Shown here piece after piece: positions 11,010 through 36,500 of a DNA stretch of 51,077 nt. Below the pieces are notes generated by a model. The model was not told the DNA's origin. It made no database searches and saw only the letters and a program-made list of their open reading frames with translations. A program made the position numbers and the translations under genes. The first letter of the stretch is position 1; each line of letters starts with the position of its first letter. Origin of the DNA: Massalongia carnosa (taxonomy: Eukaryota); NCBI GenBank assembly GCA_965645245.1, contig OZ287072.1:2790001-2841077 (forward strand), given 5' to 3'.

Positions 11010-11227
11010 TGTCAGGGTCCTGAGGTCACCTGACATCAGACTAGCATCGATTAGGTAATGTGCCGAGGAACCGACTTTTCAGGGGTTATATAGAACTCCG
11101 CCCGAGTAAAGCTTTTAGACTTCGTCTGAAGATTTTGGTGTAGAACTAGGCTATTGAAATTGAACTCGATTTATCCCTCACACAATCTTCAGACCTACAA
11201 TTAGAATCATTAGGCTAATCAGAGAAC

Positions 11228-12820
11228 ATGAACTCATTAGAATCATCCAGCAGAGATGTCGCTCCCTCGGGGCCGGCCTTCAACACTAGAGCTCGCTCCA
11301 TGTCGCGACAATCGACACAGAGCATACCAGGCGAATATGAACCCGCCGACGAAGAGGTGGGAAATGACACTATTTTGCCGACAAACAAAGACAAAGGCAG
11401 GGAACCGAAGATCGAGGCCCCGACCTCAGAACAGAAAATCGACATAAGCAATTATGCCATTTATCGAAGTCTGACGGAAAGCAATCCGTCGAAATCAGCT
11501 ATGATCATCAAGGTGGCAAATCGAGAAGAGTTGAGAAGGGCCCTCGTCCTAAAGGGAGAGGGCGACATATGGTACACTGTTCTAGCCGGCACGCTCCTAC
11601 AACATGAGGTCTTGATCGAGAAATATCAGGACTTGAAAAAAAGAAACAAAGATCTAAAAGGTCTACAGGCAGAATGGACCCGAATGATAAAGAGCTGGGA
11701 TCACGAGAGACTAGTATTTGAGGAGGATATCGCGGCTGAAAAATTGGAGACTCAGAAGGTCAAAGCGGAAAACTCGGACCTCATTCGTGAAATATCAGAG
11801 ATGAAACGTCTAGCTCGCGAAGCTACTCAGACGTCGACCTCATCGACTGGTCAAACTGAAGATCAATCCGCCGTCGCTGCCCCCTTAAGCAATTATCGAC
11901 CCAAAGGCACCAACCCGAAGGAGGCCCTCGACGGTTCCAACTCAGACGCCTATAGTGCATGGGCGTTTACGGTGGAAAGAAAAATCAGAACCGACTCCCC
12001 AATGTACACTAGTGAGGAGTTGAAAATCGACTACGCCTTATCGCAGATGAAGGATCCCATTTTCGACGCCATACACACCTGGGTAGTGGATGCCGGTCCC
12101 ACTCTCTCTTTGAATACGTTCTTCAAGGAAATTGAGAGCTATCTCGGGATAGCATATTTGACAAAGGACGCGAAGAAGGAATTGAAAGAAATAAGCATGA
12201 ACAAAGATGAAACGGTGACTGAATACTATCATCGAATGTTCAAACTCTGGCAACGTGCAAAAACCCCCGCGGATGAGAGAATTGAGACGTTCAAGGACAC
12301 CCTGCGGCCGAACATCGCGCTGTCTCTATTGGGACGGGACTTCATCAGTCTAGAAACCCTCTTGCATGAAGCCAGGAAAATCGAACAGGGAAGAAAGGAG
12401 ATGAATCAGAAGTACGCGAAGTCGGAATCTCAGAAGCCCGCGAAAACGACGACTTCTCCTTCATCTTCCGTCGGTCGTGGTTTAAACAAAACCACGACCG
12501 CCACCTCTAGTACCTCGATCACAGTCAAACCAAAAGCGACTACGACCAACTCCGCCATCTCCGCCAACCCGAACTCGAAATTCGGACAGGTCTCGACCAA
12601 ACCGGAAGGATGGGTAGGAGCTTGGTACGAGGGGACGCTTCACCCGCCCAAGTTGGAGGACGGGGAACGAGAGACTCTGTCACGACAGGGCCGATGTTGG
12701 TCGTGCAGACGATCAGGGCATAGGGGCCGAGACCCCTGTTGCATTAGGCAAGCAGTGAATCTCAGTAGAGTCGCCATTCGAGAAGACTCATCCGAGTCCG
12801 AGGACTCGGAAAAAGAATGA
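11228..12820 (+). CDS. gag: Gypsy-1 Gag (coiled coil, capsid, atypical Zn knuckle)
   Basis: 530-aa ORF just after the 5' LTR; KIDYALSQM and ETVTEYYHRM capsid-like segments; CWSCRRSGHRGRDPCC. Confidence 0.85.
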   Translation: MNSLESSSRDVAPSGPAFNTRARSMSRQSTQSIPGEYEPADEEVGNDTILPTNKDKGREPKIEAPTSEQKIDISNYAIYRSLTESNPSKSAMIIKVANREELRRALVLKGEGDIWYTVLAGTLLQHEVLIEKYQDLKKRNKDLKGLQAEWTRMIKSWDHERLVFEEDIAAEKLETQKVKAENSDLIREISEMKRLAREATQTSTSSTGQTEDQSAVAAPLSNYRPKGTNPKEALDGSNSDAYSAWAFTVERKIRTDSPMYTSEELKIDYALSQMKDPIFDAIHTWVVDAGPTLSLNTFFKEIESYLGIAYLTKDAKKELKEISMNKDETVTEYYHRMFKLWQRAKTPADERIETFKDTLRPNIALSLLGRDFISLETLLHEARKIEQGRKEMNQKYAKSESQKPAKTTTSPSSSVGRGLNKTTTATSSTSITVKPKATTTNSAISANPNSKFGQVSTKPEGWVGAWYEGTLHPPKLEDGERETLSRQGRCWSCRRSGHRGRDPCCIRQAVNLSRVAIREDSSESEDSEKE

Positions 12821-15800
12821 TTCCTGATGATAGTCGCCATCAGGAATGTCGAGAAGTTTCATTAAGGGTTGTTAGAGCATCTGTTCTTTCTGTCGATCAT
12901 CTCGTTCCGGGCAAGCATCTTTTATTTAGATGTAGTATAGCCTCTAATGAAAATCAGTTGATGATCGATAACGGAAGTGAAGCTCAATTTCTTCATGAAT
13001 CCTTTGCGCGCAAAAGAAAACTAGAGACCATTAGACTAAAAAAAAGAGACAGGGTCAGACTGGAACTTGGGGATGGAAAAGTCCATCAAATCATTGATAA
13101 GGCCGTTATCGTTCCCGTCAGAATCGGAGATCATGAGGAAAAGTTATTCTGCTATCTGGCCGACATAGGTAATCATACCTTGATCATCGGTGATGGATGG
13201 CTGCAGGAGCATAACCCTCATATTGATTGGGTTGAACGCACCATGACGTTCTCCAATCGGTGCGTCAGTAAGGGATGCGCACCTCGATCTCATTCAGTCT
13301 CAAAATTTGAATCCACAATCTTGGAGAAGGAAACGACTGCCTCAGCAAAGAACGAGGCCTTTGAAAATTTCGATATTCAGTCCCTCACCCCGAAGCGATT
13401 TATGAAACTTCTTCGAAGATCGGGTCATCAGACTTACTGTTTCTATCCGAGGGAAAAGCTCAACAAGGAGTTAGATAGGTACGAGAAGAAGCTTCTGACT
13501 GCTTCAAGTATCAACGCAGTCACCAGCGACGATCATGAGAAGTTCATGAAAGACAAAGTCGAATATACTCTGGAAGAATTGAAAAAACGAGTACCCGAGG
13601 CCTATCATGGCGAGATTGAAGTCTTCATGAGGGCTAAGGCAGACGAGTTGGCACCTCATCGAAAAGAGGATCACGAAATCAATTTGATGCCCGGGATCGA
13701 GCCTCCGTTCATCAAGAATTATCGGCCCATGTCCGAACAGGAATTGACCGCGGTAAGAAAATATCTAGATGAGCACTTAGTAAAAGGGTTTATTCGTCCG
13801 AGCTCGTTAAAGGCGGCCGCGCCGGTACTATTGGTCAGGAAACCAGGCGGGGGTCTTCGCTTTTGCGTAGATTATCGAGATCTGAATAATATCACGGAGA
13901 AAAGTCGATAACCCATTCCATTGATCAGCGAGACATTGGCGAAACTCGCCAAAGCAAAGTGGTTTACTAAATTGGACGTCATTCATGCATTCAATAGGAT
14001 GAGGATTAAAGAGGGACAAGAGTGGCTCACGGCGTTCAATACTCGATACGGTCAATTTGAATATCTTGTGATGCCCTTCGGACTATGCAACGCTCCATCA
14101 ACATTTCAGAGCTATATCAATAACTCCCTGCGAGAATACTTAGATTATTTCGTCACCGCCTATCTGGACGACGTACTGGTGTTCAGTGAAACAGAAACGG
14201 AGCACATCGAGCAGGTACTGAAGGTACTTCGTCGTCTGAAAGAAAGAGGACTTCAACTGGACATAGACAAGTGTGAATTCTCTGTCTCCGAAGTCAAGTA
14301 CCTCGGAATGTTCGTGGGGGTGAATGACGTTAGAATGGACCCAGAAAAGGTGACGGCCATACTAGAATGGAAGAGGCCCCCGTCAGTAAAAGAGGTGCAG
14401 TCCTTTCTTGGATTCGCTAACTTCTATCGTCGCTTCATTGAGCGATTCTCCGAAAAGGTGAAGTGTCTGACCGAGCTAACCCGCGGAGAGCAATATGTCA
14501 CGGAAGGCGGAAAGAGACGCACCAAGTATCAAGACTTCGTGTGGACCACTGAATGTCAGCAAGCTTTCGAAGACATGAAGATTTCTTTTACCTCTGCGCC
14601 GATTCTTGCTCATTACGACCCAAGGCTAGAGACCTGGGTGGAGACAGACGCATCTGACTTCGTAGTATCGGGGATACTCTCTCAGATGCATGAAGGCGTT
14701 CTGAAACCCGTGGCTTATTTCTCGACGAAGATGAGCCCCGCCGAATGCAATTATGAGATCTACGATAAAGAACTCCTAGCCATCGTAGAAAGTTTCGTCA
14801 TCTGGAGACCGGAGCTAGCGGGAGTGGAGCAATCAACAAAGGTCTACTCAGATCATAAGAATCTGGAGACCTTCATGACTTTGAAACAACTAAATCGCCG
14901 TCAAGTGCGTTGGGCTGAGATGCTGGCGGAATATAATTTTCGCATTATGTATAGACCAGGCAAGCAAGGGGGCAAACCGGACGCCCTCACCAGAAGAGAG
15001 CAAGATCTGCCGATGGACGCGGAAGATGATCGCACCAGATATCAATATCAGGTGCTGCTAAAAGAAAATCAGCTGGACGATGAAGTGAAACAGGACCTGA
15101 ATCTGTACGTGACAACCAGATCCATGGCCAATCGAGAACGGGTTGAAGACAACATTACTACTGACTCATCCGATCAAATCAGGGATGAGGAAGTAGAGGA
15201 CTTGACGGTAGAGGAGTTCACAATCAATTCGAATGATGATTCGGATGCAGAAAAGCCTGATGAATTATTAGAAAATCTTTTAGCGGAGGCATATCAAGAA
15301 GACGCAATGATTCAGGAAGTCATGAAGGCTAAGTTGGAAAATCTGAAGAAATTGCCCGATAAAATTCTAAGCAACGGGCTGAGACTGGCGATGGGTGACT
15401 TGGAAGTCCGTCACGAAAGACTATACTACAAAACACGCCTCTTCATTCCGAATTTCGACAAGCTGAAGCTGCGTCTTTTATATGATCATCATAATCCCCC
15501 GATGCAAGGACACCCCGGGTATCGAGGCATGTATGCCAAAATGCTGGAGAACTATTTCTGGATGTCCATGAAGGATGATTGTCGAAGATACGCTACTAAC
15601 TGCTCTACATGCCGAAGGTCCAAGGCGTACAACGATCAGAAACAGGGACTATTAGCCCCACTATCCATACCTCAAAGAAAATGGACAGACTTATCTCTGG
15701 ACTTTGTAGTCAAACTGCCCAAATGTCACAGACGGGGCCGGACGTACGAAAATATCTTGGTTATCGTGGACAGATTGACCAAACGTAGGTTGTACGAACC

Positions 15801-16887
15801 TATGGTGGATATAGGCACGAAGGACGTACTAGAAGTCCTCAAACGTCGGGTCTTTTCAACATACGGCTTGCCAAACTCCATCGTCCACGATCGCGGGACG
15901 CAATTGACAGCCCATCTGTGGAAGCGAATTTGTCAGCGATTAGGAGTCAAATCGAAACCGTCCTCCGCGCATCATCCAGAAACAGATGGTCAAACCGAAA
16001 ATGCGAATAAGGTTATGAAGAACTACCTGAGAGCATACGTCAGACATGCTCAAGACGACTGGGTGGACTACTTAACAGATGCCGAATTTGCAGTCAATAT
16101 TCATACGAACGCTTCAACCGGAATGTTCCCCTTCTTCGCTGATCACGGTTATCACCCTCGTAGTGGCTCGGAGCCGCTTCAGCCTTTTGACTCAAATGTC
16201 ACCGGACGCGCGGAACTGATGTCGGCAGACAAAATAACCGCCCGACAAGAAGCCATGACCAAATGGCTTATCGAGCACCTAACCTGGGCACAGGCAGATC
16301 AGATGAGATATGCCAATGAGTCGCGGGCCCCACATCCAGACTACAAGATAGGAGACATGGTATATGTCAACACCAAAGATTTCTCCGTCGACAAGCAGAG
16401 TCGCTCCCTGAGTTCCAAAAACGCGGGGCCATGGAAAATCATCCGAAACATAGATAACAAGGCCTATGAATTGGAAATTCCCGAACACTTGAAAAGAGTG
16501 GGGCTCACACCCATATTTCATCCATGGAAACTTCATCAGGCTCCTACGAACCCATTCCCCGGTCAACTTATTGAACCGGGTCCCCCGATACTGATTCAAG
16601 AAGACGCCGAATCCAGTCCTCATGAAGAATATGAAGTCCTCGAAATCGTCGACTGCCGTGAAACTAAGAAATACGGCACTCAGTATAAAGCAACCTATAT
16701 CGGCTCATGGGATGACTGGAACGCAAACCCACCTTGGCAGCCATGGACTGATTTCATTCGCGCCAAAGAAGAAATCAGAAAATTTCATACAGACAATAAA
16801 GGAAAACCCAACGCCCCAAAGGATGTCCTATTCATGAATAACAGTCAACCATCGACGTCCGGAGCCGCCGTCTCAGAGGAGGGGTAG
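12817..16887 (+). pseudogene. pol: Gypsy-1 Pol with a single in-frame nonsense codon
   Basis: Protease IDNGS; RT LRFCVDYR...YLDD; RNase H ETDASD; integrase H-H-C-C and DDE; chromodomain EEYEVLEIVD. TAA at 13909-13911 replaces the Tyr of the conserved K.RYP.P motif; the two ORFs share a frame. Confidence 0.92.
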
Positions 16888-17372: not shown

Positions 17373-17508
17373 GAGTACCTTCTCCCTTCCTTCCAATGCT
17401 CACCGGTGCATCCCTTCCGCCTCTTCGTACTTGCCCTGCCTCGACAACACCGACCCAAGCTGGCTGACACTGGTGAGCGTGTCTGGGTGCTCTGGCCCAA
17501 GTACCTTC
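17373..17508 (-). pseudogene. Distal TPR repeats of the NLR gene, separated by the TRIM/Gypsy insertion
   Basis: Translates KVLGPEHPDTLTSVSQLGSVLSRQGKYEEAEGMHR*ALEGREKVL; continues the repeat interrupted at 25925 across TSD CCTTC; contains a CGA>TGA stop. Confidence 0.9.
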
Positions 17509-18852
17509 TGTTAAATAAACAGTTCACGGCATAATGTTGAAATTACTACGGAGGTGACTGCTTATAGCAGTCATGGCAGCCTGCAGGGCTGAGCTAGAAC
17601 TAATGGGGCTAAGCGAGTATTCCAACACTCCCCTTCGAGCGTGGCTCCCCTTTCGCCTCCAAAATTGAAATTATCCAGCTTTTATCACTCCCCTTGCGAA
17701 GTGCTTCATCCAGCTGTGTCCGATTCGCTCCCTGTAATACGGATGGCGCTAGAGGGATACGTGATCGCCTATGGCGGTTGCGGGATTAACTAGCGTGGAC
17801 CATGTCGTAGTACGAAGTCGCATAAGCCGTCGAGGCTGACACACTGCCATCTTGCCCCGAAACTTCGGAGTTATTGTTATCACGTTCTTGACTACTTACA
17901 GATCAAACACCTGTCGAGGCCGTGGTGGTAGATTGCCATGGAGTGTAAGGCGGACTCCTGTGGAGACGCCAAGGAACTCTATATGGGATCTACTGCCCTA
18001 CTCGGAGCTACTGGATCTCTTGATGGATCAAGAGAGGTAGCAGGAGGCACGGCTCGCTGGACGCAGCTTGAGCTAGGCTCCCTGGTGTAAACTTCAGCTT
18101 CAACCTTTATTACTACGTTGGTAGTGATGTCGGCTGAATGAACCTACATGACCTCGTTGTCTAGACCTTGTGTTTAGAGGCAGGTCCGCAGTGTAGCGAG
18201 GTATTCAGTCGGAGGTAACCTTCCATCACTAGGTAGTGGTGACGGCGAAATGAAGCTACATAGCCTGAGGCATGTAGTGAGGGATCTAGCCGGGGGTAGA
18301 ATTGTTCTACCTTGCAAGGGAAGGTCTAGAAGGCTGCTCGAGGCTGACTAGATGATCCAGCGAACGCCGAGTTCGTGGATGGATCCTGAGGGATGGTTGG
18401 ATGTAATGCGATAAAGTCGGATGTGGATTGCAAGGCTGTAATGCTCGCAAGACTCCCAAGGCTTGCAAGGCTCCTAAGGTTCCAAGGCTCCCAAGGCTAT
18501 AGGCTTGGGGTGAGTAGGATAAATATCAGAACGAATCTTGTAGTATTCGTTAGCAATTAGTCTTTATTCTATGAACAACCTACGTTTGGGTCTCGGACGA
18601 GATCTCTTGGTCCAAGCACTTCCACATCCATTAGTTCTTTGGATCACATATACTCTCGGAGACTAGCACGTAGTAGCTATCTTCCTCCTCTCACGCTGAG
18701 CATTTCCCCTTTCGAGATCAGTGTCGCTCGTGATAAGCTTACTGGTCTCGTAGCCCATTACAATTCTAATTGCTCTCATACCCTACGGGTCAGCCAGCCC
18801 GTTTGGAGGAAGCTTAGCTAGTGGAGCCATCTGTTCTTGAACTCCGCAAACG

Positions 18853-20004
18853 ATGTCTTCAAGCTCTCGCCCTCGCAGGAACGTTCGGCAAGGTCCAACA
18901 AGATCTCCCCAGGCAGAAGATACTTCAAGGCCTGCGGAAGATACGCCGACACCAAGTACTGAGGAAGCTACGGGTCCTGCCAAATACACAGAGGAAGATC
19001 TGCAGAGAATCACAAAGCTCTGCATGGAGTCGTTCCTCCAGGCACAAGGTAGTCGACATGAAGGCCCCCGAGAAGGTCAGTTGAAAGCTCGGTTCCCGGA
19101 TCTCTACTATGGGAAGTCCCATATGGAGTGTTACCATTTCTGCCAACAATGCGAAGACCACTTTGACACCGCCGGCGCCACTGGGTCTAACCGTACACCC
19201 TTTGCCGCATCTTTCCTTCGTGGCCGGATCAGCTTTCGTTGGCACCAGCACAAACGTCGAAGCCAAGGCGAAGAGGTAGGACCTTTGTCTTGGATCGAGT
19301 TCAAGGCTTTCCTTCGGAAGAATCTTGGGGACTCCAGGGCTTTTGTGGACGCAACCTGGAGTAGGATCAAGCGGGACTCACAGTATCAACAAGAAGAAGT
19401 TCAGGATTGGGCTTCTCACCTGGAACATCTGCAATCTATACTCCTGGAGTTTGATGCTGAGGGAGCTCCAGAGGAGTCGGACCTTATCCGGTTCTTTCGT
19501 GAAGGCCTCAAGCCTTCGATAAAGGCCCAGATGGAACAACGAGGAAGGGAACTAGACAGTTGGGAGGAGCTGGTCGAAAAAGCGATCGATGCTGAGGCAA
19601 AAGCTAGCCTGCAGCCGCAATCGATCCTTCGTGAGATGGATCAGCGTTGTCCACATGGAAACCGGCCCGCTCATGCCACTGTGGCCAAACCCCAGACCTC
19701 TACTCGAGACCCTCGAGACGAGCCTAGCGAAAAGCCCAAACCGTCGGGTCCGAAGCAATTAAACTCCTCGCGCCCAGAGAACAGCGAGATTGCCGACAAG
19801 AAAGCTCGGAGAGAAAAGAAAAGGCAGCGACGTCTTGATCAAGCTCGAGGTCGGAAAGGCTCGGAGTCCACTCCGGCCACCGGTGCCAACACTTCCAGTG
19901 GCACCAGCAAGGACGTGTCCCAAATAACCTGCTTCAATTGCAACAAGAAGGGACACTACGCAAGTACTTGTCGCGAGCCCAAGAAGGATGCCTCAAAAAA
20001 CTAG
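18853..20004 (+). CDS. gag: Gypsy-2 Gag with CCHC zinc knuckle
   Basis: 383-aa ORF; CFNCNKKGHYASTC; ends in A AAA AAC TAG. Confidence 0.92.
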   Translation: MSSSSRPRRNVRQGPTRSPQAEDTSRPAEDTPTPSTEEATGPAKYTEEDLQRITKLCMESFLQAQGSRHEGPREGQLKARFPDLYYGKSHMECYHFCQQCEDHFDTAGATGSNRTPFAASFLRGRISFRWHQHKRRSQGEEVGPLSWIEFKAFLRKNLGDSRAFVDATWSRIKRDSQYQQEEVQDWASHLEHLQSILLEFDAEGAPEESDLIRFFREGLKPSIKAQMEQRGRELDSWEELVEKAIDAEAKASLQPQSILREMDQRCPHGNRPAHATVAKPQTSTRDPRDEPSEKPKPSGPKQLNSSRPENSEIADKKARREKKRQRRLDQARGRKGSESTPATGANTSSGTSKDVSQITCFNCNKKGHYASTCREPKKDASKN

Positions 20005-23000
20005 TATCGGTCTTGGCAACCTCCGCGCCTATGACTGAAACTAGTAAGGAGGCTAATCTTGAGCGGGTTCCTTGTATTCGATATCCGGTCCGTTTGAGGA
20101 AGGATCAAGACGAGGTAGAAGCTTTGATAGATTCCGGCAGCGAGGTCAACGCAATGCACCCCGCTTATGCCGCGAAACTAGGGCTTCGTGTTAGGGAAAC
20201 AGATGTTGGGGCGCAGAAGATTGATGGATCTCACCTGGATACCTTCGGTATGGTTATCGCAGGGTTCTCGGTCGAGGATAAGCTAGGGAAGGTTCGATTC
20301 TTCCAGGAAACCTTCTTGTTGGCTAATATTAGCCTGGAGGTGGTCCTGGGAATGCCTTTTCTTACACTCAGCAGTGTGGATATACGGTTTCCAGAGCGAG
20401 AGCTTGCCTGGAGAACTTACACAGCTGCCGAGGCTTTACCAACAACCAGACGTGTGGAGATCATCGATAAGGAAGAGTTCGCGGAGACGGTCCTTGGAGG
20501 AGACGATGAGGCATATGTGGTGCATGTAATGGCCGTAAGCAAGCCATCGTCCATGCCGATCCACGCCTCTCGCCAGGCCCAAGTAGCCTCGCTAGTGAGC
20601 GAGGAGGCCAATATCCCCGTTGAATATTCCGACTTCTCTGACGTTTTCTCCCCTGACTCTGCAGCGGAACTACCGGAGCACACCGGCTTTAACGACCATC
20701 CTATCGATCTAGTAGATGGTAAGCAGCCACCTTATGGCCCAATCTACAGCTTAGGTCCTATGGAACTAGAGACACTGAAAACCTATATTGAAACCAACCT
20801 AGCCAGCGGTTTTATTAGGCCTTCTCAGTCTCCGGCTGGTGCTCCTATACTGTTCATCCGCAAAAAGGACGGTAGTCTCCGCCTGTGTGTGGATTATCGA
20901 GGACTCAATACCCTGACGATCAAGAATCGGTACCCGTTACCCTTGATTGGAGAGTCGCTTGATCGACTAGGCCGTGCCAAGCGATTTACGCAGCTAGATC
21001 TCACGAACGCGTATCATCGGATGCGAATTCGAGAGGGTGATGAATGGAAGACAGCCTTCAGGACTCGATATGGTCACTTCGAGTATCAGGTTATGCCCTT
21101 CGGCCTTTCCAATGCCCCAGCTAGTTTCCAGGGCTATATCAACAAAATTCTAGCAGAGAAACTCGACGTCTTTGTCATCGTATACTTAGATGACATCCTG
21201 ATCTATACCGAGGACGTAGGCCAAGGCCATGTTGAGGCTGTTAAGTGGGTCTTGGAGAATCTCCGAAAAAACGGACTCTTTGCCAATCTAAAGAAGTGCC
21301 GTTTTCATCAAGATGAGGTTCGCTTCCTAGGCTACGTTGTCTCTGGCCAAGGAATTCGTATGGAAGAGGAAAGGATTGAAGCTGTCACGAACTGGCCAGA
21401 ACCCAAGTCAGTACGAGACGTCCAGGTGTTTATGGGATTCGCCAACTTCTACCGGCGGTTCATCCGGGGGTTCAGCAAGATTGCTGCTCCTCTCACCTCG
21501 ATGCTCAAAACAAACTTGGTAGCCAATACTGGGCCATCCCCAAAGGCAAGGTGCGGAGAGGAAGAATGTTGTTTCCTAACTCCTGCCGCTAAGTTAGCCT
21601 TTGCCCAATTAAAGCAGGCGTTCACTGAAGCACCGATCCTCCGACATTTTGACCCTGAGCGCCACATCCGACTTGAGACGGACGCCTCGGGTTACGCCAT
21701 AGGTGGCGTTCTTAGCCAGCTGGATATCGAAACCGGCCAATGGCACCCAGTAGCGTATTTTTCTCGGAAAATGATTCCTGCAGAAACTCGTTACGAAACT
21801 CACGATGGGGAACTACTGGCCATCGTTGAAGCCTTTAAGAATTGGAGGCATTATCTCGAAGGTTGTAAGCATGAAGTCCTCGTGCTTACAGACCACAACA
21901 ACCTGCGGCGATTTATGGATACGAAGAGTTTAAGCCCCCGCCAGGTTCGCTGGGCGCAAGAACTCTCTCGTTACAATTTCCGCATCGATTATCGTCAAGG
22001 CAAGGCTAATGGAGCTGCCGATGCTTTATCTCGCTATCCTCAGAGGAGCCAAGGCGAAGAGGAAGTGCTTCGAGCTGAAAATACTCGAATCCTTCACCGA
22101 TTGCAGTCCTCGCTGACCAGCGCCAGCATCTCTGGTATCACTAGTACTCAGCATCTCACCCCTCCACACCACATCATTATCTGTGGAACGCACGTCTTCC
22201 CTCAACTGCGTCAGTTTTGGGATACGCTCCGCCAAGACTTGACCTCAGAAGGTCCTTACAAAGTCAGCATTGGTGGCATGAGGTTGAGGTTGCAAGAGTT
22301 GCAGGAGGAAGATACCCAAGCTCAGACGATCAGAGCAGAGAAGCTTGGAAAAGATGGTTGGGAAGACACCGAGGGGATTTTGCATTATCAAAGCCTGCCT
22401 TATGTCCCTGAGATCCTCAGAACTGAGCTAATCAGTAGGCATCATGATGATCCATTAGCAGGACACTTCGGCATCGAAAAGACGCGAGAACTCATTGCGA
22501 GAAAGTACTTCTGGGAGACTCTCCGCCGCGATGTCGAGAGCTATGTCAAGGGTTGCGACGTCTGCTTATCTTCTAAAGCGGTCAGACACAAGCCTTACGG
22601 AGACCTACAGTCACTGCCAGTGCCAACTCATCGCTGGAAGGACTTGTCTATGGATTTCGTGACGGGGTTGCCTGAATCTGCGGATTGGAAGCGCGACAGT
22701 TACGATTCGATCCTGGTTATCGTCGACCGGCTTACGAAGATGGTGCACTATGAGCCAGTGCTAACAACGATCACTGCGCCATTGCTAGCAGAGGTAATCA
22801 TAGACGTGGTAGTTCGTCACCACGGCTTGCCCGACTCTATCGTCAGCGACCGCGGCTCAGTTTTCACTTCTAAGTTCTGGTCTTCCTTGTGCTACTTTTT
22901 AGGCATCAAGCGACGCCTCTCTACCGCGTTCCATCCACAGACCGATGGGCAGACCGAACGTCAGAACAGCACCATGGAAGCCTATCTTAGGGCGTTCGTC

Positions 23001-23855
23001 AACTACGAACAAGACGACTGGGCGCGCCTGCTTCCGATGGCTGAGTTCGCGTACAACAATGCGAAAAACGCGAGTACTGGGCATACGCCGTTCGAGCTCA
23101 ACTGTGGCTACCACCCCCGTGTCTCGTATGAGGAAGACATCGACCCCCGTTCCAGGTCCAAGTCAGCAAATGAACTAGCTGCAGAACTAAAGGACTTGAT
23201 GGCTATCTGTAAGGAAAACCTTCAGCACGCACAAGAATGGCAGACAAAGGCCCACAACAAAGGAACCAAGCCACGGAGCTATGCACCTGGCGACAAAGTT
23301 TGGTTGAACAGCAAGTATATTAAAACCAAACGCAATCGCAAGCTAGAGGCTAAGTTCTTTGGGCCATTCCGTGTCTTGCAACCAATGGGCAAGCAAGCCT
23401 ACAAGCTGGAGCTTCCAAAGCGGTGGCGCATCCATGATGTCTTTCATGTATCACTGCTGGAGCAGGACACCACAAGGAAGGGGCGGGTGGACGAGAAGAT
23501 CGCGGAACAGCTGGAATTCGAAGCTGGTAACGATGAGGAATACGAGGTTGAAGGCATTTTGGATAGCGCGGTCTATGCCAAGGAGTCAGAAGCTGGCCAC
23601 CTACCAGGCCTCTACTATCTGGTCTCCTGGAAGGGCTATCCAGAGGATGAAAGTACGTGGGAACCGGCGGCAGCGATCAAACACTTACGGAAGATCGTCA
23701 AAGCCTACCATGAGGGTAACCCCACCAAGCCGACAGCAACCTCTCCTCCTATTGACACCGCACCGCCAATGGCTAAGCCGGCCGTTAAGCCTCAAGGCAA
23801 GAGGAAACGCGGCCGACAAGCTACCAGCACTGGGAGCAAGAAGGCGAAGAAGTAG
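19995..23855 (+). CDS. pol: Gypsy-2 Pol (PR-RT-RH-IN-chromodomain), probably via -1 frameshift
   Basis: ORF 19938-23855 lies in the -1 frame. LIDSGS, LRLCVDYR, YLDD, ETDASG, HDDPLAGHFG...C..C, SDRG, GQTER, GPF, EEYEVEGILD...YLVSWKGYP...TWEP. Confidence 0.95.
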   Translation, partial: KKLVSVLATSAPMTETSKEANLERVPCIRYPVRLRKDQDEVEALIDSGSEVNAMHPAYAAKLGLRVRETDVGAQKIDGSHLDTFGMVIAGFSVEDKLGKVRFFQETFLLANISLEVVLGMPFLTLSSVDIRFPERELAWRTYTAAEALPTTRRVEIIDKEEFAETVLGGDDEAYVVHVMAVSKPSSMPIHASRQAQVASLVSEEANIPVEYSDFSDVFSPDSAAELPEHTGFNDHPIDLVDGKQPPYGPIYSLGPMELETLKTYIETNLASGFIRPSQSPAGAPILFIRKKDGSLRLCVDYRGLNTLTIKNRYPLPLIGESLDRLGRAKRFTQLDLTNAYHRMRIREGDEWKTAFRTRYGHFEYQVMPFGLSNAPASFQGYINKILAEKLDVFVIVYLDDILIYTEDVGQGHVEAVKWVLENLRKNGLFANLKKCRFHQDEVRFLGYVVSGQGIRMEEERIEAVTNWPEPKSVRDVQVFMGFANFYRRFIRGFSKIAAPLTSMLKTNLVANTGPSPKARCGEEECCFLTPAAKLAFAQLKQAFTEAPILRHFDPERHIRLETDASGYAIGGVLSQLDIETGQWHPVAYFSRKMIPAETRYETHDGELLAIVEAFKNWRHYLEGCKHEVLVLTDHNNLRRFMDTKSLSPRQVRWAQELSRYNFRIDYRQGKANGAADALSRYPQRSQGEEEVLRAENTRILHRLQSSLTSASISGITSTQHLTPPHHIIICGTHVFPQLRQFWDTLRQDLTSEGPYKVSIGGMRLRLQELQEEDTQAQTIRAEKLGKDGWEDTEGILHYQSLPYVPEILRTELISRHHDDPLAGHFGIEKTRELIARKYFWETLRRDVESYVKGCDVCLSSKAVRHKPYGDLQSLPVPTHRWKDLSMDFVTGLPESADWKRDSYDSILVIVDRLTKMVHYEPVLTTITAPLLAEVIIDVVVRHHGLPDSIVSDRGSVFTSKFWSSLCYFLGIKRRLSTAFHPQTDGQTERQNSTMEAYLRAFVNYEQDDWARLLPMAEFAYNNAKNASTGHTPFELNCGYHPRVSYEEDIDPRSRSKSANELAAELKDLMAICKENLQHAQEWQTKAHNKGTKPRSYAPGDKVWLNSKYIKTKRNRKLEAKFFGPFRVLQPMGKQAYKLELPKRWRIHDVFHVSLLEQDTTRKGRVDEKIAEQLEFEAGNDEEYEVEGILDSAVYAKESEAGHLPGLYYLVSWKGYPEDESTWEPAAAIKHLRKIVKAYHEGNPTKPTATSPPIDTAPPMAKPAVKPQGKRKRGRQATSTGSKKAKK

Positions 23856-23895
23856 AAGCCTCGGGGTTTCTCTCCTGCCACTTGCTATGGAATCT

Positions 23896-24137
23896 AGGAT
23901 CGGTTTTCCCTTCGTTTTCCCGTTATCTTATCAGGGTTTAAGGGTTTTTCATCGATCTTGAGAAGTCGGTTTTCCCTACGTTCTCCCGTTGTCTTATCAG
24001 GGTTTTAGGGTTTTTCATCGATTTCGATAAAGTCGGTTTTCCTCCTCAGTTCCCACTGGGTTAGGAGGTTTTTCATTGACTTCGGAGGCCGGTTTTCCTC
24101 CTTGCTATCATACAAGGAAGGAGGTTTTTCACCGCCT
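23896..24137 (+). other. Array of four ENE-like (U-rich internal loop) RNA hairpins in the Gypsy-2 3' UTR
   Basis: Four units of stem-CGG-TTTT-CC(C/T)...(G/A)GG-TTTTT-CA-stem at 23896-23959, 23962-24025, 24030-24082 and 24086-24137; paired arms covary (CCCTT/AAGGG vs CCCTA/TAGGG). Confidence 0.75.
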
Positions 24138-25924
24138 GCCATACACATCATACCACCCACCTAACGTGTCGTTATTATCCAGTACACGCTCGGCGGAGCT
24201 CGCGTCCTAGAGGGGAGGCAATTGTAATACGGATGGCGCTAGAGGGATACGTGATCGCCTATGGCGGTTGCGGGATTAACTAGCGTGGACCATGTCGTAG
24301 TACGAAGTCGCATAAGCCGTCGAGGCTGACACACTGCCATCTTGCCCCGAAACTTCGGAGTTATTGTTATCACGTTCTTGACTACTTACAGATCAAACAC
24401 CTGTCGAGGCCGTGGTGGTAGATTGCCATGGAGTGTAAGGCGGACTCCTGTGGAGACGCCAAGGAACTCTATATGGGATCTACTGCCCTACTCGGAGCTA
24501 CTGGATCTCTTGATGGATCAAGAGAGGTAGCAGGAGGCACGGCTCGCTGGACGCAGCTTGAGCTAGGCTCCCTGGTGTAAACTTCAGCTTCAACCTTTAT
24601 TACTACGTTGGTAGTGATGTCGGCTGAATGAACCTACATGACCTCGTTGTCTAGACCTTGTGTTTAGAGGCAGGTCCGCAGTGTAGCGAGGTATTCAGTC
24701 GGAGGTAACCTTCCATCACTAGGTAGTGGTGACGGCGAAATGAAGCTACATAGCCTGAGGCATGTAGTGAGGGATCTAGCCGGGGGTAGAATTGTTCTAC
24801 CTTGCAAGGGAAGGTCTAGAAGGCTGCTCGAGGCTGACTAGATGATCCAGCGAACGCCGAGTTCGTGGATGGATCCTGAGGGATGGTTGGATGTAATGCG
24901 ATAAAGTCGGATGTGGATTGCAAGGCTGTAATGCTCGCAAGACTCCCAAGGCTTGCAAGGCTCCTAAGGTTCCAAGGCTCCCAAGGCTATAGGCTTGGGG
25001 TGAGTAGGATAAATATCAGAACGAATCTTGTAGTATTCGTTAGCAATTAGTCTTTATTCTATGAACAACCTACGTTTGGGTCTCGGACGAGATCTCTTGG
25101 TCCAAGCACTTCCACATCCATTAGTTCTTTGGATCACATATACTCTCGGAGACTAGCACGTAGTAGCTATCTTCCTCCTCTCACGCTGAGCATTTCCCCT
25201 TTCGAGATCAGTGTCGCTCGTGATAAGCTTACTGGTCTCGTAGCCCATTACACTCCCCTTGTGGAACGAATCTAGCTCCCTCTTACTCCATTTCCCTTAA
25301 GCACGTAGTTCTTTCTTATGTCTTTTGTTGTCCTGCTTTGTAGCCTCATTAAACCCATAACCATCTCTCGAAACGTAGCTTTTGTGAGTGTATGGGTGGA
25401 TGGGAAGAGTACTATGGACGTGTTTTGTTGATGGCCTGAGCAGGGCTTTTCTCGATGTCTCTGTTAGACATTATCCCGAAGACCATTGACGTTGGTGGCC
25501 TGATCGCAGGGCTTTTATCTCCCCTTGCTGATCTGACCAGTAATGCAAGATGTGAAGTCTTCGAGGCACCGCCCATTGTAGATGTCCTTCTCAGCACGTT
25601 TCGTACGTACACCACTTTCGATGACGTTTCCGCTTCGTTTCCGCTTCGTTTCTCATCCCTTTCGATGTCGTTTCCGCTTCGTTTTCGCGCTTTCCACGTC
25701 TGAACTTTCACCTCATCATCTTCTTGATACGACATGATAGTATGTAGTCTATGCATGAAGGATGCCGTCGGAGGGGCGCAAAGCACAAACCCGAGACTCA
25801 TAACCTGTTAAATAAACAGTTGACGGCATAATGTTGAAATTACTAAGGAGGTGACTGCTTATAGCAGTCATGGCAGCCTGCAGGGCTGAGCTAGAACAAA
25901 TGAGGCTAAGCGAGTATTACAACA

Positions 25925-26700
25925 CCTTCTCGTATCCTTCCAATGCTCGCCGGTGCATCGCTTCCGCCTCTTCGTACTTGCCCTGGCTCGACAACACCGA
26001 CCCAAGCTGGCTGACACTGGTGAGCGTGTCTGGGTGCTCTGGCCCAAGTACCTTCTCAGATCCTTTCGAATCTCGTCGGTGCATCGCTTCCGCCTCTTCG
26101 TACTTGCCCTGCCTCGACAACACCGACCCAAGCTGGCTGACACTGGTGAGCGTGTTTGGGTGCTCTGGCCCAAGTACCTTCTCAGATCCTTTTTTTCAAA
26201 TCTCGTCGGTGCATCTCTTCCGCCTCTTCGTACTTGCCCTGCCTCGACAACACCGACCCAAGCTGGCTGACACTGGTGAGCGTGTGTGGGTGCTCTAGCC
26301 CAAGTACCTTCTCCCTTCCTTCCAATACTTGCCGCTCCATCGCTTCCGCCTCTTCGTACTTGCCCTGGCTCGACAACACCGACCCAAGCTGGCTGACACT
26401 GGTGAGCGTGTCTGGGTGCTCTGGCCAAAGTACCTTCTCCCTTCCTTCCAATGCTCGCCGGTGCATCGCTTCCGCCTCTTCGTACTTGCCCTGGCTCTCA
26501 AACAACGACCCAAGCTGGTTGACACTGGTGAGCGTGTGTGGGTGCTCTGGCCCAAGTACCTTCTCCCTTCCTTCCAACGCTCGCCGGTGCATCGCTTCCG
26601 CCTCTTCGTACTTGGCCTGGCTCTCAAACAACCACCCAAGATGGCTGACACTGGTGAGCGTGTCTGGGTGCTCTGGCCCAAGTACCCTCTCTCTTGCTTC
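25925..26700 (-). repeat. High-identity 126-bp tandem repeats encoding TPR units
   Basis: About six near-identical 126-nt units, plus one more at 17373-17508; variation concentrated at a few codons (S/R/E, AL/DL/VL, R/S/Y, D/H/N). Confidence 0.92.
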
Positions 26701-29630
26701 GACTGACATTCGAACAACTTTCTCCGCCGTTCGGTACTCACCTCTAAGGAGTAAGTACCATCCTAAGTTTGAAGCAACCTGTGCCTGATTTGTCACGTCC
26801 ACCTCATCTTCTGTTCCATGGCCAATAGCTTCTCTTGCGTGGGGAAGGAGTACTTGACAATCCGCCCACGTCTTATAGTCTCCGTTGGGGAATGCTGCGG
26901 CTAGAACTCTTATCGACTCCTTTGTCCATTTGCTTAGCTGCTTGGCCGCCTCGAGCCACTTTCTCATGGATAGCTGCACTAGACGGTGCATCTCAAATGA
27001 CTGCTTTCCGATCTCGGCCCGCACAAGGGAGAAGCTTAGCAACGGCGCCAGAGCGTCGTCAAAGTCGAGTCGACTGGTGCTGTTCCGCAGTAGGGCTATT
27101 GGAATTCCCTGCCTATCGAACATGCTCATCAATGCAAGCAAATCTGCAGCTGGCTGCTCCGTCTTCTGGATCTGAGTGAACGAGATCTGCCACGTCGCGA
27201 TAACCGCATGCCGTATGCTGTAGTTTCGCCGAAGGTCCTTTAGAACGTTCTTGCCTAGGAGACGCACCTGATTGGCCTCGCTCTCACGGAACAGCTCAAG
27301 GTAATCGGACATGGTTGTCGTGGATGCTCTTGTCTTGATGTACGCCGCAGCGTGTGTAATTGCAAGAGGTATGCGTTCTAGAGCCCGGACAAGCGCCTTC
27401 GCATCCGCTCTACTAGACTCGCTAAATGGTAGCCGTGTGTTGAGCAGCGCTAGAGCGTCCTCTTCATCCATTGGCTCCACCTTGACAACTCTGCCATGCG
27501 GCTCAACGAGATTTTGTGCCGCAGTTTCGTTCCTCGAGGTGATGAGAATCGTTCCGTTCGGCGTTTGAGGAATGAAGCTTTCAAGCGGCCTGGTGTGGCT
27601 GGGGATGGCGCTCTTCTCCGCAATACCGACGTTATCTTCGTCGGCGGCAAAGAAAACCTCATCGTCGTCGGCATTGTCGATTACCATAAGCCATCGGCCG
27701 TTTCTCTCATCGCCGAGCCAGTCATATATGAGTTGGAGGATATCAGCCTTTGCTTCATCGCGGCTGGGGAGTTCGACCTTGGTAGCGATGTCTCTGTAAG
27801 CTTGCTCAAATCTGTTGGCGTTGCTCGCATGCACCCAAAACACCCAGGTTTGCGGAGTCGACTCTCTGACTCTGTACGCATACTCGATAGCGATCTGGGA
27901 CTTCCTAGTACGAACATGAGCATTACCTCTCACAGCACAATGTATGGAAATGCATACCCTACGCCTGCTAGACCGCTCAGGGCCACTCGACCGTGATCAG
28001 GCAAGGCTGCTTGTTCAAGCTTCTTGCTTATTGTTGCAAGAATGCCCTCTCGGCCCACGAACGCGCTATCTCTCTGGAAGGGGACCGTGGAACAAGGCTT
28101 GGGTCTGTTTTGCGCTCGCACTAGAACTCGGCCGTTATTACCCAGAAGCAAGCATAAGGACGGTTAAACAAGGACTAATCTTGATGTGATCTAGCATAGA
28201 ATAGAAGGCTACGTACAAAATCGAGCCGCAACCACACTCGGTGCATCCTGCTCAAACTGTTTAAGCTTGTCCCGCGCACTGGTATACCCTCGATTATTCC
28301 TGTTATCAAACTTGACAATCATCGAGTGATCGGAGTCTAGAGGGATCTTTTCCTCCATGGAATCTGGCAGCTGAAGAAGGGCCGAGTCGATATCTACTGT
28401 CGTGATGAAGTCGCCAGTCCTTCTCCAGCATTTGCTTTCGCGGTCCTGTTGCCAAAATATCAATGGTCTATTATAATCTTATCCTAGAGGATCATACAAA
28501 CTCAAGCTGCCTAGTCTGCCCCGTCTCGTAGAAGCTTACCACCTTCCGGTCTCGGATGAGATTCTTGAAATCTGCTAGCTGAAACGCTAGCGAGTCAGAC
28601 TTAGATCGGATCTGCTGAAGTAGTGCACTTCGCGGGTGATTGTCCTGCCCAGCCAGCATCTTCTGGATATTATCTACCACGAGCCCCTTGTGTGGAATCC
28701 CAAACAGAAGCATGCCGTACGTAGCTCTGTAGAGGGTTGCTATCGTTGGATGATCATCTTCGTTGGCCTGAACCGCCTTGACAAGGCACTATGCTGCTGC
28801 TTAGCCTTAGGCATATAGCTGTCACAGCAGACGACCTACGTGAGCAAGTATAATACCACCAAAGCTGTGCGCGATAAAGAAGAGCGGCCGCTGTCTCAGC
28901 TAGCGCATCGCAGCCATCAGCTTCATGCTTCCGCTCGCGATGGTACATTGTAACAGCCGCTTACCTCTTCAGTGTTCCGCACCTTCTTGAGCTCTTCTTC
29001 CAGCTCCCGGCCGTAGTCCATAATTGTGTCGATCCCATGGCTTGACAGCTTGGAGTTGTAGCCATAGATCATCGTGCGGCAGCATGGCAGGTCCTTGGAC
29101 AGGAAGTGGTGCAGCCACATTCGCCCGAGGTTTCCCTTTCCCCTCCATGACCCGTATGCGTGTCCGTCAAGGCCGGTGATTGCAATTATACTGAGACGTG
29201 GTAGATTAGCAGTGAGCAGTAAGAAAGCTGTCAGGAATAACGGACACAGGCTACACATTCAGATAAGTGCTACGTACTCTGCGGCAACCGGCGCATCTGA
29301 CTTTGGCGCGTACAGTTGAGTGAATCCGAAGAAGTGGCAGTCAAAGCTAATGTCCGTGTCCGCCATCTCAACCTGCCAATCTCCCAGCAGGTTGGCTGTC
29401 AGCTCGGACAGGAAGCTAGGCACCCCGCCGTGGAACTCCACCAGCGCGACCCTTTCCTGCTCATTTTCGTAGCAAGAGGGTACAATAGCTGCACTTATAT
29501 CTAGCTTCGAGTGTTCTTCTTCCGACAGCTTGTTGTTGATGGCATCCCTCAGCGTTATTTTCAGTTCGTCGTCAGACTGCGAGGCTGCGAGACCGGTGAC
29601 GCGGAAAACGGTGCCCTTCTTCGTGGCCAT
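25925..29630 (-). pseudogene. Fungal NLR-like gene: N-terminal SesB-like alpha/beta hydrolase, NB-ARC, 42-aa TPR repeats; disrupted
   Basis: Spliced exons give DIIAITGLDGHAYGSW...MIYGYNS, RPLFFIAHSFGGII (nucleophile elbow), LFGIPHKG, DSDHSMIVKF; P-loop GLAGVG|KSQ split by an intron; WLMVIDNADD, ILITSR, IPLAI, MHRLV; TPR GPEHPDTLTSV. A +4 homopolymer frameshift at 26190-26196 and the LTR element inserted at 25924 disrupt it. Confidence 0.9.
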
Positions 29631-33565: not shown

Positions 33566-36500
33566 TGTCAGATGGTAGGGGCTACCATCATGGGCATTCA
33601 TCTAGTGCTTATCTTCGGCGACTCTACCACGGGGACCGAGATGACCTCCGGGGACCGAGATGACTTCCGGGGACCGAGATTCAGTGGACCGGCTGACTCC
33701 TTATGAAAAGGGTCGCCGAAAGGTCTCCAATGTGACTGCTATATAATGAAGTAGATAGCTCACATATAATCCATACCTTCAATGACAATAATGCTATTAT
33801 ACCTACACGTGAATTTTACTATTCATCAGGTTATGAGCCCGGCTCACTTCCACTTCGTCGAATAAGCCCCCACATTGATTGTCAAAACATACCTCCACCT
33901 CTGCATCTGCCCCATCCTTCAATATATATATATATTCCCTGCTAGTATCCCCTCCATACCGGGAGACCCTTCCCTGCTTCTACACCACTTTCTCTGGCAT
34001 GGCTAAAGGAGAGAGTCTGTACACATTCCCCAAACTCATGGGGAGTGGTAACTATAAGAAATGGTCTAGAGACATGGCCTTCGCCCTGCAGGAAGCGGAA
34101 CTCTGGAGTTATGTGACTGGTGCTCGGAAACTGCCCCGAGAGATTCCCCTTCCACCTAATAAACCTAGTGAGAAAGAGGGAGACCCTCCGGAGGAAACAT
34201 CAGAAACAGATGAACAACTCGACAAAAGAGACCAAAGGGACCTTGAACGACTAGAGTTCTTGGAGAAACAAAGGAGGGTAGTTGGTAAGATAGGAAAGAT
34301 GTGCACGGACGACGTGCAGCAAGAATTCCTGTCCATGAGAGACCTAGCTAATGGAGCAGTCTGGGACCCAAAAGATCTTTGGGAACATCTAAAAACCCGG
34401 TACACTCTAAAGAATTGGAGTGCCAAATGGAGCACCTTCAACCGGCTAGAGGAGATAAAATATGAAAAGTGCAAGTCCATCGAAGAATACGGAAGCCTTG
34501 TCAGGGACATCAAGGCCGAGATCACCGACATGGCCCTGACTGTCGAACAAATAGTTGTGCTCAGGCTCCTGAATGAACTAGGAAACTCGTTCAGCACCTA
34601 TCTTACAATACTGAACGAGCAAGCCCGGCGTGAGGATAAATTCCCTGCGCTGGATGCTTTGTTGAAAAACCTGGAGGACGAGGAAGCTCGCATGCGCCAG
34701 GACCCCATTGCCACAGCCAATGTGCTAAAGACAAAAGGGAAGACTAACAACAAAAAGCACCCCTCCGGAGCAAGGTCCGGAGAGGGTAAGACCAAATGCA
34801 AGTGTTGCGGGAAGTTTCACCCCGGAACTTGCAGGAATATCGACTCCAAATGCAAAACATGTGGTAAAGTAGGCCATTTAGAAAGCGTTTGCGAGGAAGG
34901 AGGCCATGAAGCCTCAAAGCCACAAATAGTCTGTATGATAAGGGAATGTTCCGGGAAAAGTACCCAGGAAACACCGCTTATTTGTATGGCAAAACCGTCC
35001 CAAAGCCCCCAACGTCCCCAAAGCTTGTTACTCGACTCCGGTGCAACCTCACATATTCTCTGCAACAAGGACTTCTTTCTAGAAGGAACCTTTCGGAGCG
35101 AGTACAACTTTCTAGAGACAGGGTCCGGAGAAGTACTACCAACAGAGGGCACAGGCTCTCTGCTTATCCCGCTGGACAATAGCAATGGGAGTCAAACTGA
35201 CCTCATTCTGACCGATGTCCTATACTCCCCACGCCTAAAATTTAACCTCATCAGCACCATTAAGCTTGGTAAGAAAGGCATAGCAACATACCTGATGGCG
35301 GACGAGCAGCCCGCACAATTAGTGCACAAAGGAAAGGTGATTGGACTGGCCAAAACGATAGATAATCAATATATTTTGGAAACCACCGTCAGCCCTATCG
35401 GTGCACGAGCCCTCACCACCACAAATTCTGCAAAGTCCCCTATTCAAATATGGCACGAACGACTCGGCCACCTCAGCTATCCAAACCTCCTAAAACTAAA
35501 TCACTTAGCCAATGGAGTCACTATCGAAGGACCCATACCAGAAGAAGTATGCAGCCCATGCATGATGGGTAGACAACAGCGGAAAATAAATCGCACTCCA
35601 AGGACCCGAGCAACAGAATTCCTGGGTCTAGTGCATAGCGATTTGGGGGGACCATTCCCACTGACAAGGTTCGGTGAACGTTTTTATGCTACAATAAAAG
35701 ACGATTTCTCCGGAGTAGTGTGGGTTTATTTGCTGAAAACAAAGGGTCAGACCTTTGAAATTTTCAAAGAGTTCAAAGCATGGATAGAAAATCAATCAGG
35801 AAAGAAAATAAAGCGCCTTCGAGCTGATGGAGGAGGAGAGTACACGGGTGGAGACTTCCAGAATTTCCTAAAAAAGGAAGGCATTCAATGGGAAGCCAGG
35901 GCACCGAATGTGCCCGAGCAAAACGGAAAAGCCGAAAGACAGATGGTCCCTACCCGGTCCATGTTGAAAGCAAAGAGACTTCCAAAGTCTCTTTGGGGGG
36001 AAGTCCTGAAGACTGCTGGGTACATCAAAAATAGAAGTCCCGGGGTCGACGAGGTCACTCCATATGAACGCATGAACAATGCGAAACCCTTCCTCGGCCA
36101 TATGAGAACGGTCGGGGCAAGGACGTGGGTACATATCCCAAAGGAGAAACGAAAGAAATTGGATGATCGTTCCTGGCAAGGAATATTTGTCGGGTATGAT
36201 GGAAACAATCAGTATCGAATCTACGATCCTCTCACTGGAAAAGTCCATGTTTGTCGCGATATCTCCGTCGACGAAGGCAATATATATGATCCCAAGGATA
36301 AAAAGGCCTCGGACCTAGTCGACATTCTATGGGAGAAGAATGATGATGGTTTATCTGATGATCCGGACGACTTTATCGAAAATGAAGTCGAAATCCCAAA
36401 TTCGTTATCTCCGATAAACCCGAACTCCAAAATATCGAGAAGTTCGGAAGACCAACAGGTATCGGCCCCATCAACTCCACGAATAATGCTTCATCCAATG

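Follow-up and report, generated by a model that had tools for sequence, protein, structure and literature searches.

The region considered here lies in a 51,077-nucleotide stretch of contig OZ287072.1 (assembly GCA_965645245.1, Massalongia carnosa), which was analysed at its full length and is called the window below. From position 17733 to 25252 the window is occupied by an intact, recently inserted Ty3/Gypsy chromovirus, and between the pol stop codon of this element and its 3' long terminal repeat (LTR) lie four adjacent hairpins that share the design of triple-helix stability elements of the ENE type (element for nuclear expression). An initial annotation of the sequence had placed such an array between the pol stop and the polypurine tract (PPT) of an intact Gypsy element, and the identical LTRs, the target-site duplication, the domains of gag and pol and the PPT were all found (Table 1). 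The pol reading frame is −1 relative to gag and is open from 19839, and the candidate frameshift heptamer before the gag stop has a canonical look. The spacer from the pol stop (23855) to the 3' LTR (24223) has a length of 367 nt and contains the array, which begins 41 nt past the pol stop and finishes 69 nt before the PPT. The other LTR retrotransposons of the window are two Gypsy elements and one Copia element; in all three the pol stop nearly abuts the LTR, leaving no spacer, and an ENE-like hairpin was found in none of them (n = 3).

Table 1. Coordinates of the chromovirus, its hairpin array, the other retrotransposon coding regions of the window and the hairpins of distant relatives (window positions unless a locus is named).
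Feature	Position	Strand	Description
Target-site duplication CTCCC	17728–17732 (left), 25253–25257 (right)	+	same 5 bases flank both LTRs
5' LTR	17733–18762	+	1030 bp, TG...CA termini; 100% identical over 1030 bp to the 3' LTR
9-mer CTAATTGCT in the region of the primer-binding site (PBS)	18766–18774	+	complementary to AGCAATTAG in the LTR, 18552–18560 and 25042–25050
gag open reading frame (ORF)	18853–20004	+	ATG at 18853, TAG at 20002–20004; CCHC zinc knuckle
Heptamer A_AAA_AAC	19995–20001	+	candidate −1 frameshift site into pol, directly 5' of the gag stop
pol ORF	19839–23855	+	protease, reverse transcriptase, RNase H, integrase, SH3, chromodomain; TAG stop at 23853–23855
ENE-like unit 1	23896–23960	+	lower stem AGGAUCGGU/AUCGAUCUU; loop UUU(U)/UUUUUC(A); upper stem CCCUU/AAGGG
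Unit 1, second small loop	within 23896–23960	+	CGUUUU/UUU, closing helix CCC/GGG
ENE-like unit 2	23962–24025	+	lower stem GAAGUCGGU/AUCGAUUUC; upper stem CCCUA/UAGGG
Unit 2, second loop	within 23962–24025	+	CGUUCU/UUU, closing helix CCC/GGG
ENE-like unit 3	24030–24082	+	lower stem AAGUCGGU/AUUGACUU; upper stem CCUCCU/AGGAGG; weak top helix CCC/GGG
ENE-like unit 4	24084–24140	+	bulged G+C-rich lower stem GGAGGC(C)GGU/ACCGCCU(G)CC; upper stem CCUCCUU/AAGGAGG
PPT AGAGGGGAGGCAAT	24209–24222	+	adjoins the 3' LTR
3' LTR	24223–25252	+	putative U3 24223 to ~25041; putative R start near 25042
Gypsy coding region	11219–16887		
Copia coding region	33879–38288		
Gypsy coding region	39960–44839		with chromodomain
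ENE-like hairpin of a relative	5404–5462 of locus L015	sense	one per locus
ENE-like hairpin of a relative	5400–5458 of locus L027	sense	one per locus
ENE-like hairpin of a relative	906–964 of locus L056	sense	one per locus

The four hairpins follow one another on the + strand from 23896 to 24140 with gaps of only 1–4 nt. In each of them a lower stem of 8–9 pairs (longer in unit 4) leads into an internal loop in which UUUU (5') faces UUUUU-CA (3'); several of the lower-stem pairs in the array are G.U. Directly above the loop an upper stem of 5–7 pairs starts with two C-G pairs that are invariant in all four units; below the loop, the second pair is G-C in three of the four. A triple-helix stability element is defined as a stem-loop with a U-rich internal loop beside G-C pairs (PMC7583470), and, judged by sequence, the single-domain ENE design is present, as the internal loops are U-rich on both strands and flanked by invariant C-G pairs. 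All the sequence features listed in the initial annotation for a four-hairpin array were found in place, with one correction: the lower stem of unit 4 exists, but with ACCGCCT as its 3' half it had been drawn too short, and it is really bulged, longer and G+C-rich, and reaches 24140.

The initial annotation had further described units 1 and 2 as double-ENE-like and had counted up to six U-rich loops. Second loops do exist in these two units; they lie above the 5-bp duplex and are closed by a CCC/GGG helix with pair probabilities of 0.92–0.97, while unit 3 has a weaker vestige (p ~0.5) and unit 4 has none. However, these upper loops are degenerate, with U4/U3 in unit 1 and a C-interrupted UUCU/U3 in unit 2, and since 3–4 U face 3 U, each could form at most about three triples. 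The comparison with double ENEs (dENEs) is therefore weak, and four solid loops were counted instead of six. Units 1 and 2 resemble a dENE superficially, being transposon-borne and having two U-rich loops stacked in one hairpin with a short duplex between them. In the dENEs of plant and fungal transposons, such as that of the rice hAT element TWIFB1, it is the upper domain that is canonical (PMC7583470), and dENEs are described as having a conserved adenosine triad and a pocket for the poly(A) 3' end (PMC13541005, citing Torabi 2021). In the chromovirus the situation is the reverse of that in TWIFB1, with a canonical lower and a degenerate upper loop, and multiplicity is achieved by hairpins placed side by side, not by stacked loops.

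Folding calculations agree with this architecture. The minimum-free-energy fold of 23890–24145 (+) obtained with RNAfold consists of exactly four consecutive hairpins at −78.4 kcal/mol (z = −3.92; 0 of 200 shuffles were as stable), and it recovers in all four units the stems that had been proposed, and with them the shared succession of lower stem, U-rich loop and upper stem. When the array is folded in a 900-nt context (23600–24500), the stem pair probabilities are mostly 0.8–1.0, the lowest values being those of the top helix of unit 3 (~0.5), of one pair in unit 4 (0.51) and of the outermost pair of unit 3 (0.68). Apart from the first U of the 5' tracts, the U tracts have a predicted unpaired probability of 0.89–1.00 in this context. 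The + strand folds more stably than the − strand in all four units (−17.3 versus −12.2 kcal/mol in unit 1, −16.6 versus −10.0 in unit 2, −16.5 versus −13.8 in unit 3, and −23.4 versus −21.3 in unit 4), which fits an RNA element on the sense transcript.

Chance hardly produces such an arrangement. The motif GGTTTTCC-N10-40-GGTTTTTCA has four matches in the 51,077 bases of the window (both strands), all of them inside the array, and over 100 dinucleotide shuffles of the window the same-spacing motif GGTTTTCC..GGTTTTTCA was matched 0.00 times on average. A relaxed descriptor, which demands a U-run, a 4-bp upper stem, a second U-run and a 3-bp lower stem on either strand, gave six matches in the array—the four units and two cross-unit combinations—and two elsewhere in the window, as compared to a mean of 0.3 in 50 mononucleotide shuffles.

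As had been claimed, the stem sequences differ between the units while pairing persists. Aligning the four units leaves CGGTTTTCC, GGTTTTTCA and four scattered single positions as invariant columns. Pairing is kept in 92.3% of the 52 cells, versus 79.3% after shuffling (0 of 500 shuffles were as high), and 5 of the 13 pairs of the two-helix structure are changed on both sides; with slid partners, pairing drops to 29–56%, but this control is flattered, as the structure was derived from the same four sequences. The compensatory T-A to A-T change by which CCCTT/AAGGG becomes CCCTA/TAGGG is real and occupies alignment columns 18 and 46.

The same core recurs in distant relatives. When metagenome contigs were scanned with the C-terminus of pol, 80 loci with 30–48% identity were obtained, 67 of which have at least 300 nt downstream, and in 3 of the 80 (L015, L027 and L056) there is one hairpin with a GGUUUUCC...GGUUUUU core, whereas by our own arithmetic only about 0.1 such core matches would be expected by chance in 80 loci. 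These hairpins start 9–18 nt past the pol stop on the sense strand, although the pol of their elements is just 36–42% identical to that of the window element. Their upper stems covary among themselves, and with the three hairpins added to the alignment 84.6% of the cells pair, compared with 67.1% after shuffling, and 7 of the 13 pairs are changed on both sides. An A-rich run precedes the hairpin in all three loci (for example AAGAAAGAAAGG in L027), and the apical sequence GUGGaCAaGcAAACGC is common to them. LTR pairs, which would give the spacer length, were sought for L015 and L027, and none was found within the loci.

A model built from the four window units and the three relatives (R1) recovers just its own seven training sequences when run across the window and the 80 metagenome loci. 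In viral contigs, in which a pol scan found no relative, the exact motif has at least 120 matches, and the 80 of these phage-contig loci that were scored with R1 reached no more than 23.4 bits. An apparent tandem pair in one motif locus, L096, turned out to be a plain repeat that lacks the stems and was rejected. The window units score 55.6–60.8 bits, but since they belong to the training set the gap is limited in meaning, and it shows only that the bare motif comes without the stems. Taken together, the hairpin counts and scores indicate that this type of element is patchy among the relatives and single-copy where it is present, and the four-fold array is so far confined to the family of the window element.

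This family is young and very abundant. Public runs that contain the stretch carry several different organism labels, among them that of a lichen metagenome, and the comparison of family copies used the contigs of runs X1, X2, X3 and X7 only. From X1 alone, 6,833 contig pieces were aligned. The array region is near-identical in X2 (2 differences over 337 nt, record 13) and X3 (10 differences over 953 nt, record 17), and in X7, again for contigs only, the depth is zero in the array bins. Variants listed in the array include 23927 C>A, which affects the apical loop of unit 1, and the loss of one nucleotide at 24029; at least 12 listed variants lie in 596 nt of upstream pol and at least 24 in the LTR, counts that do not amount to a comparison of rates. 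The summed depth of the LTR is several-fold above that of the internal region (23300–25300, X1–X7), and, although contig depth is no measure of copy number, the excess is consistent with many solo LTRs.

It could be argued that the array is a functionless minisatellite, i.e., that the tandem duplication of a palindromic unit was tolerated by the spacer and that the copies have not decayed so far. Such an origin would suit units 1 and 2, which represent a recent tandem duplication with a 66-nt period and 89% matches (Tandem Repeats Finder, TRF), as well as the youth of the element with its identical LTRs, and the near-identity of the family copies implies that little purifying selection can be read from them. 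However, units 3 and 4 are far more diverged than units 1 and 2 and differ at most stem positions, yet they pair, and invariance over longer blocks is confined to the U tracts with their closing pairs. Three things speak against neutrality, namely the compensatory changes, the invariant U tracts and a core that recurs behind the pol stop of distant elements, and we regard a neutral repeat as highly improbable.

Three nucleotides past the 5' LTR lies the 9-mer CTAATTGCT, which is not a tRNA-type TGG primer-binding site and whose complement AGCAATTAG begins in the 3' LTR at 25042; a TATA-like ATAAATA precedes it by about 32 nt, near 25010. In Tf1-type self-priming, it is the 5' end of the transcript itself that anneals to the PBS, and the two 9-mers suggest a candidate Tf1-like self-priming site. 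The complementary 9-mer and the TATA-like box together would place the start of transcription near LTR position 820 and thus the start of R near 25042, a tentative position, because the 9-mer match alone has a chance probability of ~0.12. If it is right, U3 would comprise ~820 nt, and the 3' untranslated region (UTR) of more than 1 kb that had been proposed for the element is plausible, with a length of ~1.2–1.4 kb that depends on this start. The putative poly(A) site must lie between ~25050 and 25252. The element has no 15-mer with 12 or more A residues, and because an A-rich tract is thus missing, the poly(A) tail would be the sole obvious A-rich partner of the U-rich loops; a MALAT1-type reading with an internal A-rich partner was rejected for the same reason.

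The location on the sense genomic RNA, only 69 nt upstream of the PPT, would also be compatible with a role in replication, be it as packaging or dimerisation signal or in plus-strand priming or strand transfer near the PPT, and the near-identical stem halves would allow pairing across units, as in the two cross-unit descriptor matches. Yet no complementarity to the PBS, R or the gag leader beyond chance was detected, the one 9-mer described above being outside the array. The other chromoviruses of the window manage without any spacer, and the conserved U tracts would have no evident role in such a process. We therefore consider a replication signal very unlikely.

An ENE whose function has been proven is that of Evade, a Copia93 element of Arabidopsis, which forms a triplex with A20 in vitro, requires its U tracts and the adjacent G-C pairs, raises RNA stability and transposition, sits upstream of the whole U3, and was shown in 2025 to drive the exceptional mobility of the element (PMC12501189). 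In both elements, the last ORF and the 3' LTR are unusually far apart, and the spacer contains a fold-back with U-rich loops and flanking G-C pairs. The ENE of Evade acts on the poly(A) tail of its own element, as would the array; Evade is exceptionally active, and the family described here is young and abundant. The two systems differ in that Evade, a Copia element from a plant, has a single hairpin with four U tracts in two loops and an experimentally proven function, whereas our element is a Gypsy chromovirus, probably fungal, with four hairpins that provide eight main U tracts and weak extra loops, and with a putative function. The second point of reference is the ENE of PAN, a nuclear noncoding RNA from KSHV (Kaposi's sarcoma-associated herpesvirus), whose crystal structure with A9 shows five triples (PMC7583470). 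The order of lower stem, U-rich loop and upper stem-loop with G/C pairs by the loop is the same in PAN and in the four units, and the proposed mode of action would be alike, with U.A-U triples and A-minor contacts to the tail. PAN, however, has one element near its 3' end, whereas the chromovirus has four in a retrotransposon mRNA, apparently ~1 kb from the 3' end and with 3–4 triples possible in each.

On balance, we think it probable that the array consists of four single-domain ENE-type hairpins in tandem, which clamp poly(A) on the sense RNA of the chromovirus, and this is the best reading in view of the placement of the array and the match of its design to the proven ENE of Evade (PMC12501189). 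What we infer under this reading is that the array is transcribed, where the poly(A) site lies, that poly(A) is bound and that the RNA is stabilised. Both U strands of each loop would sandwich a run of A residues of the RNA's own poly(A) tail in 3–4 U.A-U triples, with adjacent A residues lodged in the minor groove of the lower stem. Held in this way, the tail would be shielded from deadenylases, which would make the intronless genomic RNA longer-lived and thereby permit more transposition. Four adjacent clamps would be more likely to capture a tail whose start is ~1 kb downstream, and their joint capacity may be roughly 30–40 A residues, if one calculates with ~9 A residues per PAN-type ENE.

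Several observations weigh against this view. At most four triples can form per loop (U4 opposite U5), or three if a U-A pair with the 'CA' persists, where PAN has five, and for the first U of every 5' tract a pairing with the A of this conserved 'CA' is predicted. The pair immediately below the loop is G.U in units 1–3 and G-C in unit 4 only, although the G-C pairs adjacent to the loop are essential in Evade. The end of the array would lie ~0.9–1.1 kb upstream of the poly(A) site deduced above, and transposon ENEs were reportedly described by Tycowski in 2016 as close to the tail. A scan of the whole window with Rfam 15 gave no match at the gathering score; in 23800–24250, three unrelated weak matches appeared at E values up to 10, but it was not established whether Rfam holds a model for transposon ENEs. 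Units 1 and 2 are not independent, because they result from a recent duplication, and the independent comparisons are therefore few. The variant 24023 T>C, listed for about half of the X1 depth at that site, would disrupt an A-U pair in the lower stem of unit 2. As to the relatives, the lower stems of the three hairpins are weak, and no such hairpin was found in 64 of the 67 loci with at least 300 nt past pol. A model built from the window units alone (R2) gave 28.8 bits, 18.6 bits and a score below the listing threshold for the three relatives, while phage loci with a chance motif reached up to 20.1 bits, a value that among the relatives L027 alone exceeds.

The proximity to the stop codon, which is 41 nt here and 9–18 nt in the relatives, the presumable 3' UTR of more than 1 kb, and the repeated accessible loops, which suit multivalent protein binding, would also be expected if the hairpins were binding sites for a U- or pyrimidine-binding factor that mediates the export of unspliced RNA or shields an mRNA with a long 3' UTR from nonsense-mediated decay. 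Retroviruses do have repeated, structured elements in such a place, behind the last ORF and ahead of the 3' LTR, which promote the survival of an unspliced RNA whose 3' UTR is long, namely the constitutive transport element (CTE) of Mason–Pfizer monkey virus (MPMV) and the stability element of Rous sarcoma virus (RSV). These two differ from the array in sequence and structure, and their effect is protein-mediated, so that the analogy is only functional; we know of no transport or stability element that has the design described here. No protein-binding motif was identified in the array, and the invariance of the U tracts on both strands and of the C-G closing pairs corresponds to the triplex requirements of Evade. 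As this match favours poly(A) over a protein as the ligand, we judge protein-binding sites to be an unlikely explanation.

If the hairpins clamp poly(A), it may be speculated that the four clamps form one cooperative cassette that takes up most of a tail of fungal length, and that the copy number of ENEs is a tunable dose. We have doubts about this extension. In such a cassette, the ~1 kb of U3 would be looped out and the 3' end would be parked directly behind the pol stop codon. Deadenylation would be blocked, and at the same time the 3' UTR of more than 1 kb would appear short to the nonsense-mediated-decay machinery. Tandem duplication would have expanded the ENE dose from one hairpin in the distant relatives to four in the window element. 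If true, this would be an undescribed multi-ENE architecture and a mode of 3'-UTR compaction.

About 200 cases of ENEs and dENEs in plant and fungal transposons have been recorded, with a strong tie to LTR retrotransposons (PMC12501189, citing Tycowski 2016), and ENEs directly behind an ORF are already known (PMC13541005). As far as the searchable literature goes, which excepts the Tycowski 2016 survey and its supplements, we came across no account of separate ENE hairpins arranged in tandem. Some herpesviral PAN homologues have been reported to contain two ENEs, and ENEs are among the few RNA structures that protect an RNA without any protein. A four-clamp cassette in a young and abundant Gypsy family would, if true, mean that transposons raise their ENE dose by tandem duplication. 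As a series of one to four units, the array could tell how many clamps a poly(A) tail needs, and it permits one to ask whether clamping works across a kilobase and whether clamping next to a stop codon blunts nonsense-mediated decay. It may also be of use as a compact stabiliser for engineered intronless RNAs. Should the hairpins not bind poly(A), they would still constitute a conserved structured module at a place where most relatives have nothing.

Some further features of the window deserve mention. The U3 part of the LTR contains a short tandem repeat, GCTCCCAAG, with 6.3 copies at 24918–24988 and at the same place in the 5' LTR, and periods of 17 and 35 also occur; several contig joints and indels from the runs fall in this part of the LTR. 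Two ORFs of 398 residues, at 343–1539 and 39960–41156, were considered and are unrelated. A 126-bp tandem repeat (6.1 copies, 91% matches) lies at 25924–26691, with an extended range of 25798–26825, and is also found at 17374–17644; as repeats that are 92–96% identical thus flank the Gypsy element on both sides, the element was apparently inserted in or beside a repeat tract. The 126-bp repeat encodes the 42-residue TPR_10/TPR_12 repeats of an NLR-like ORF of 604 residues on the − strand (26182–27996), which combines DUF7779 with TPR. Genes of this type presumably point to a fungal host, and the genome that carries the chromovirus is probably fungal.

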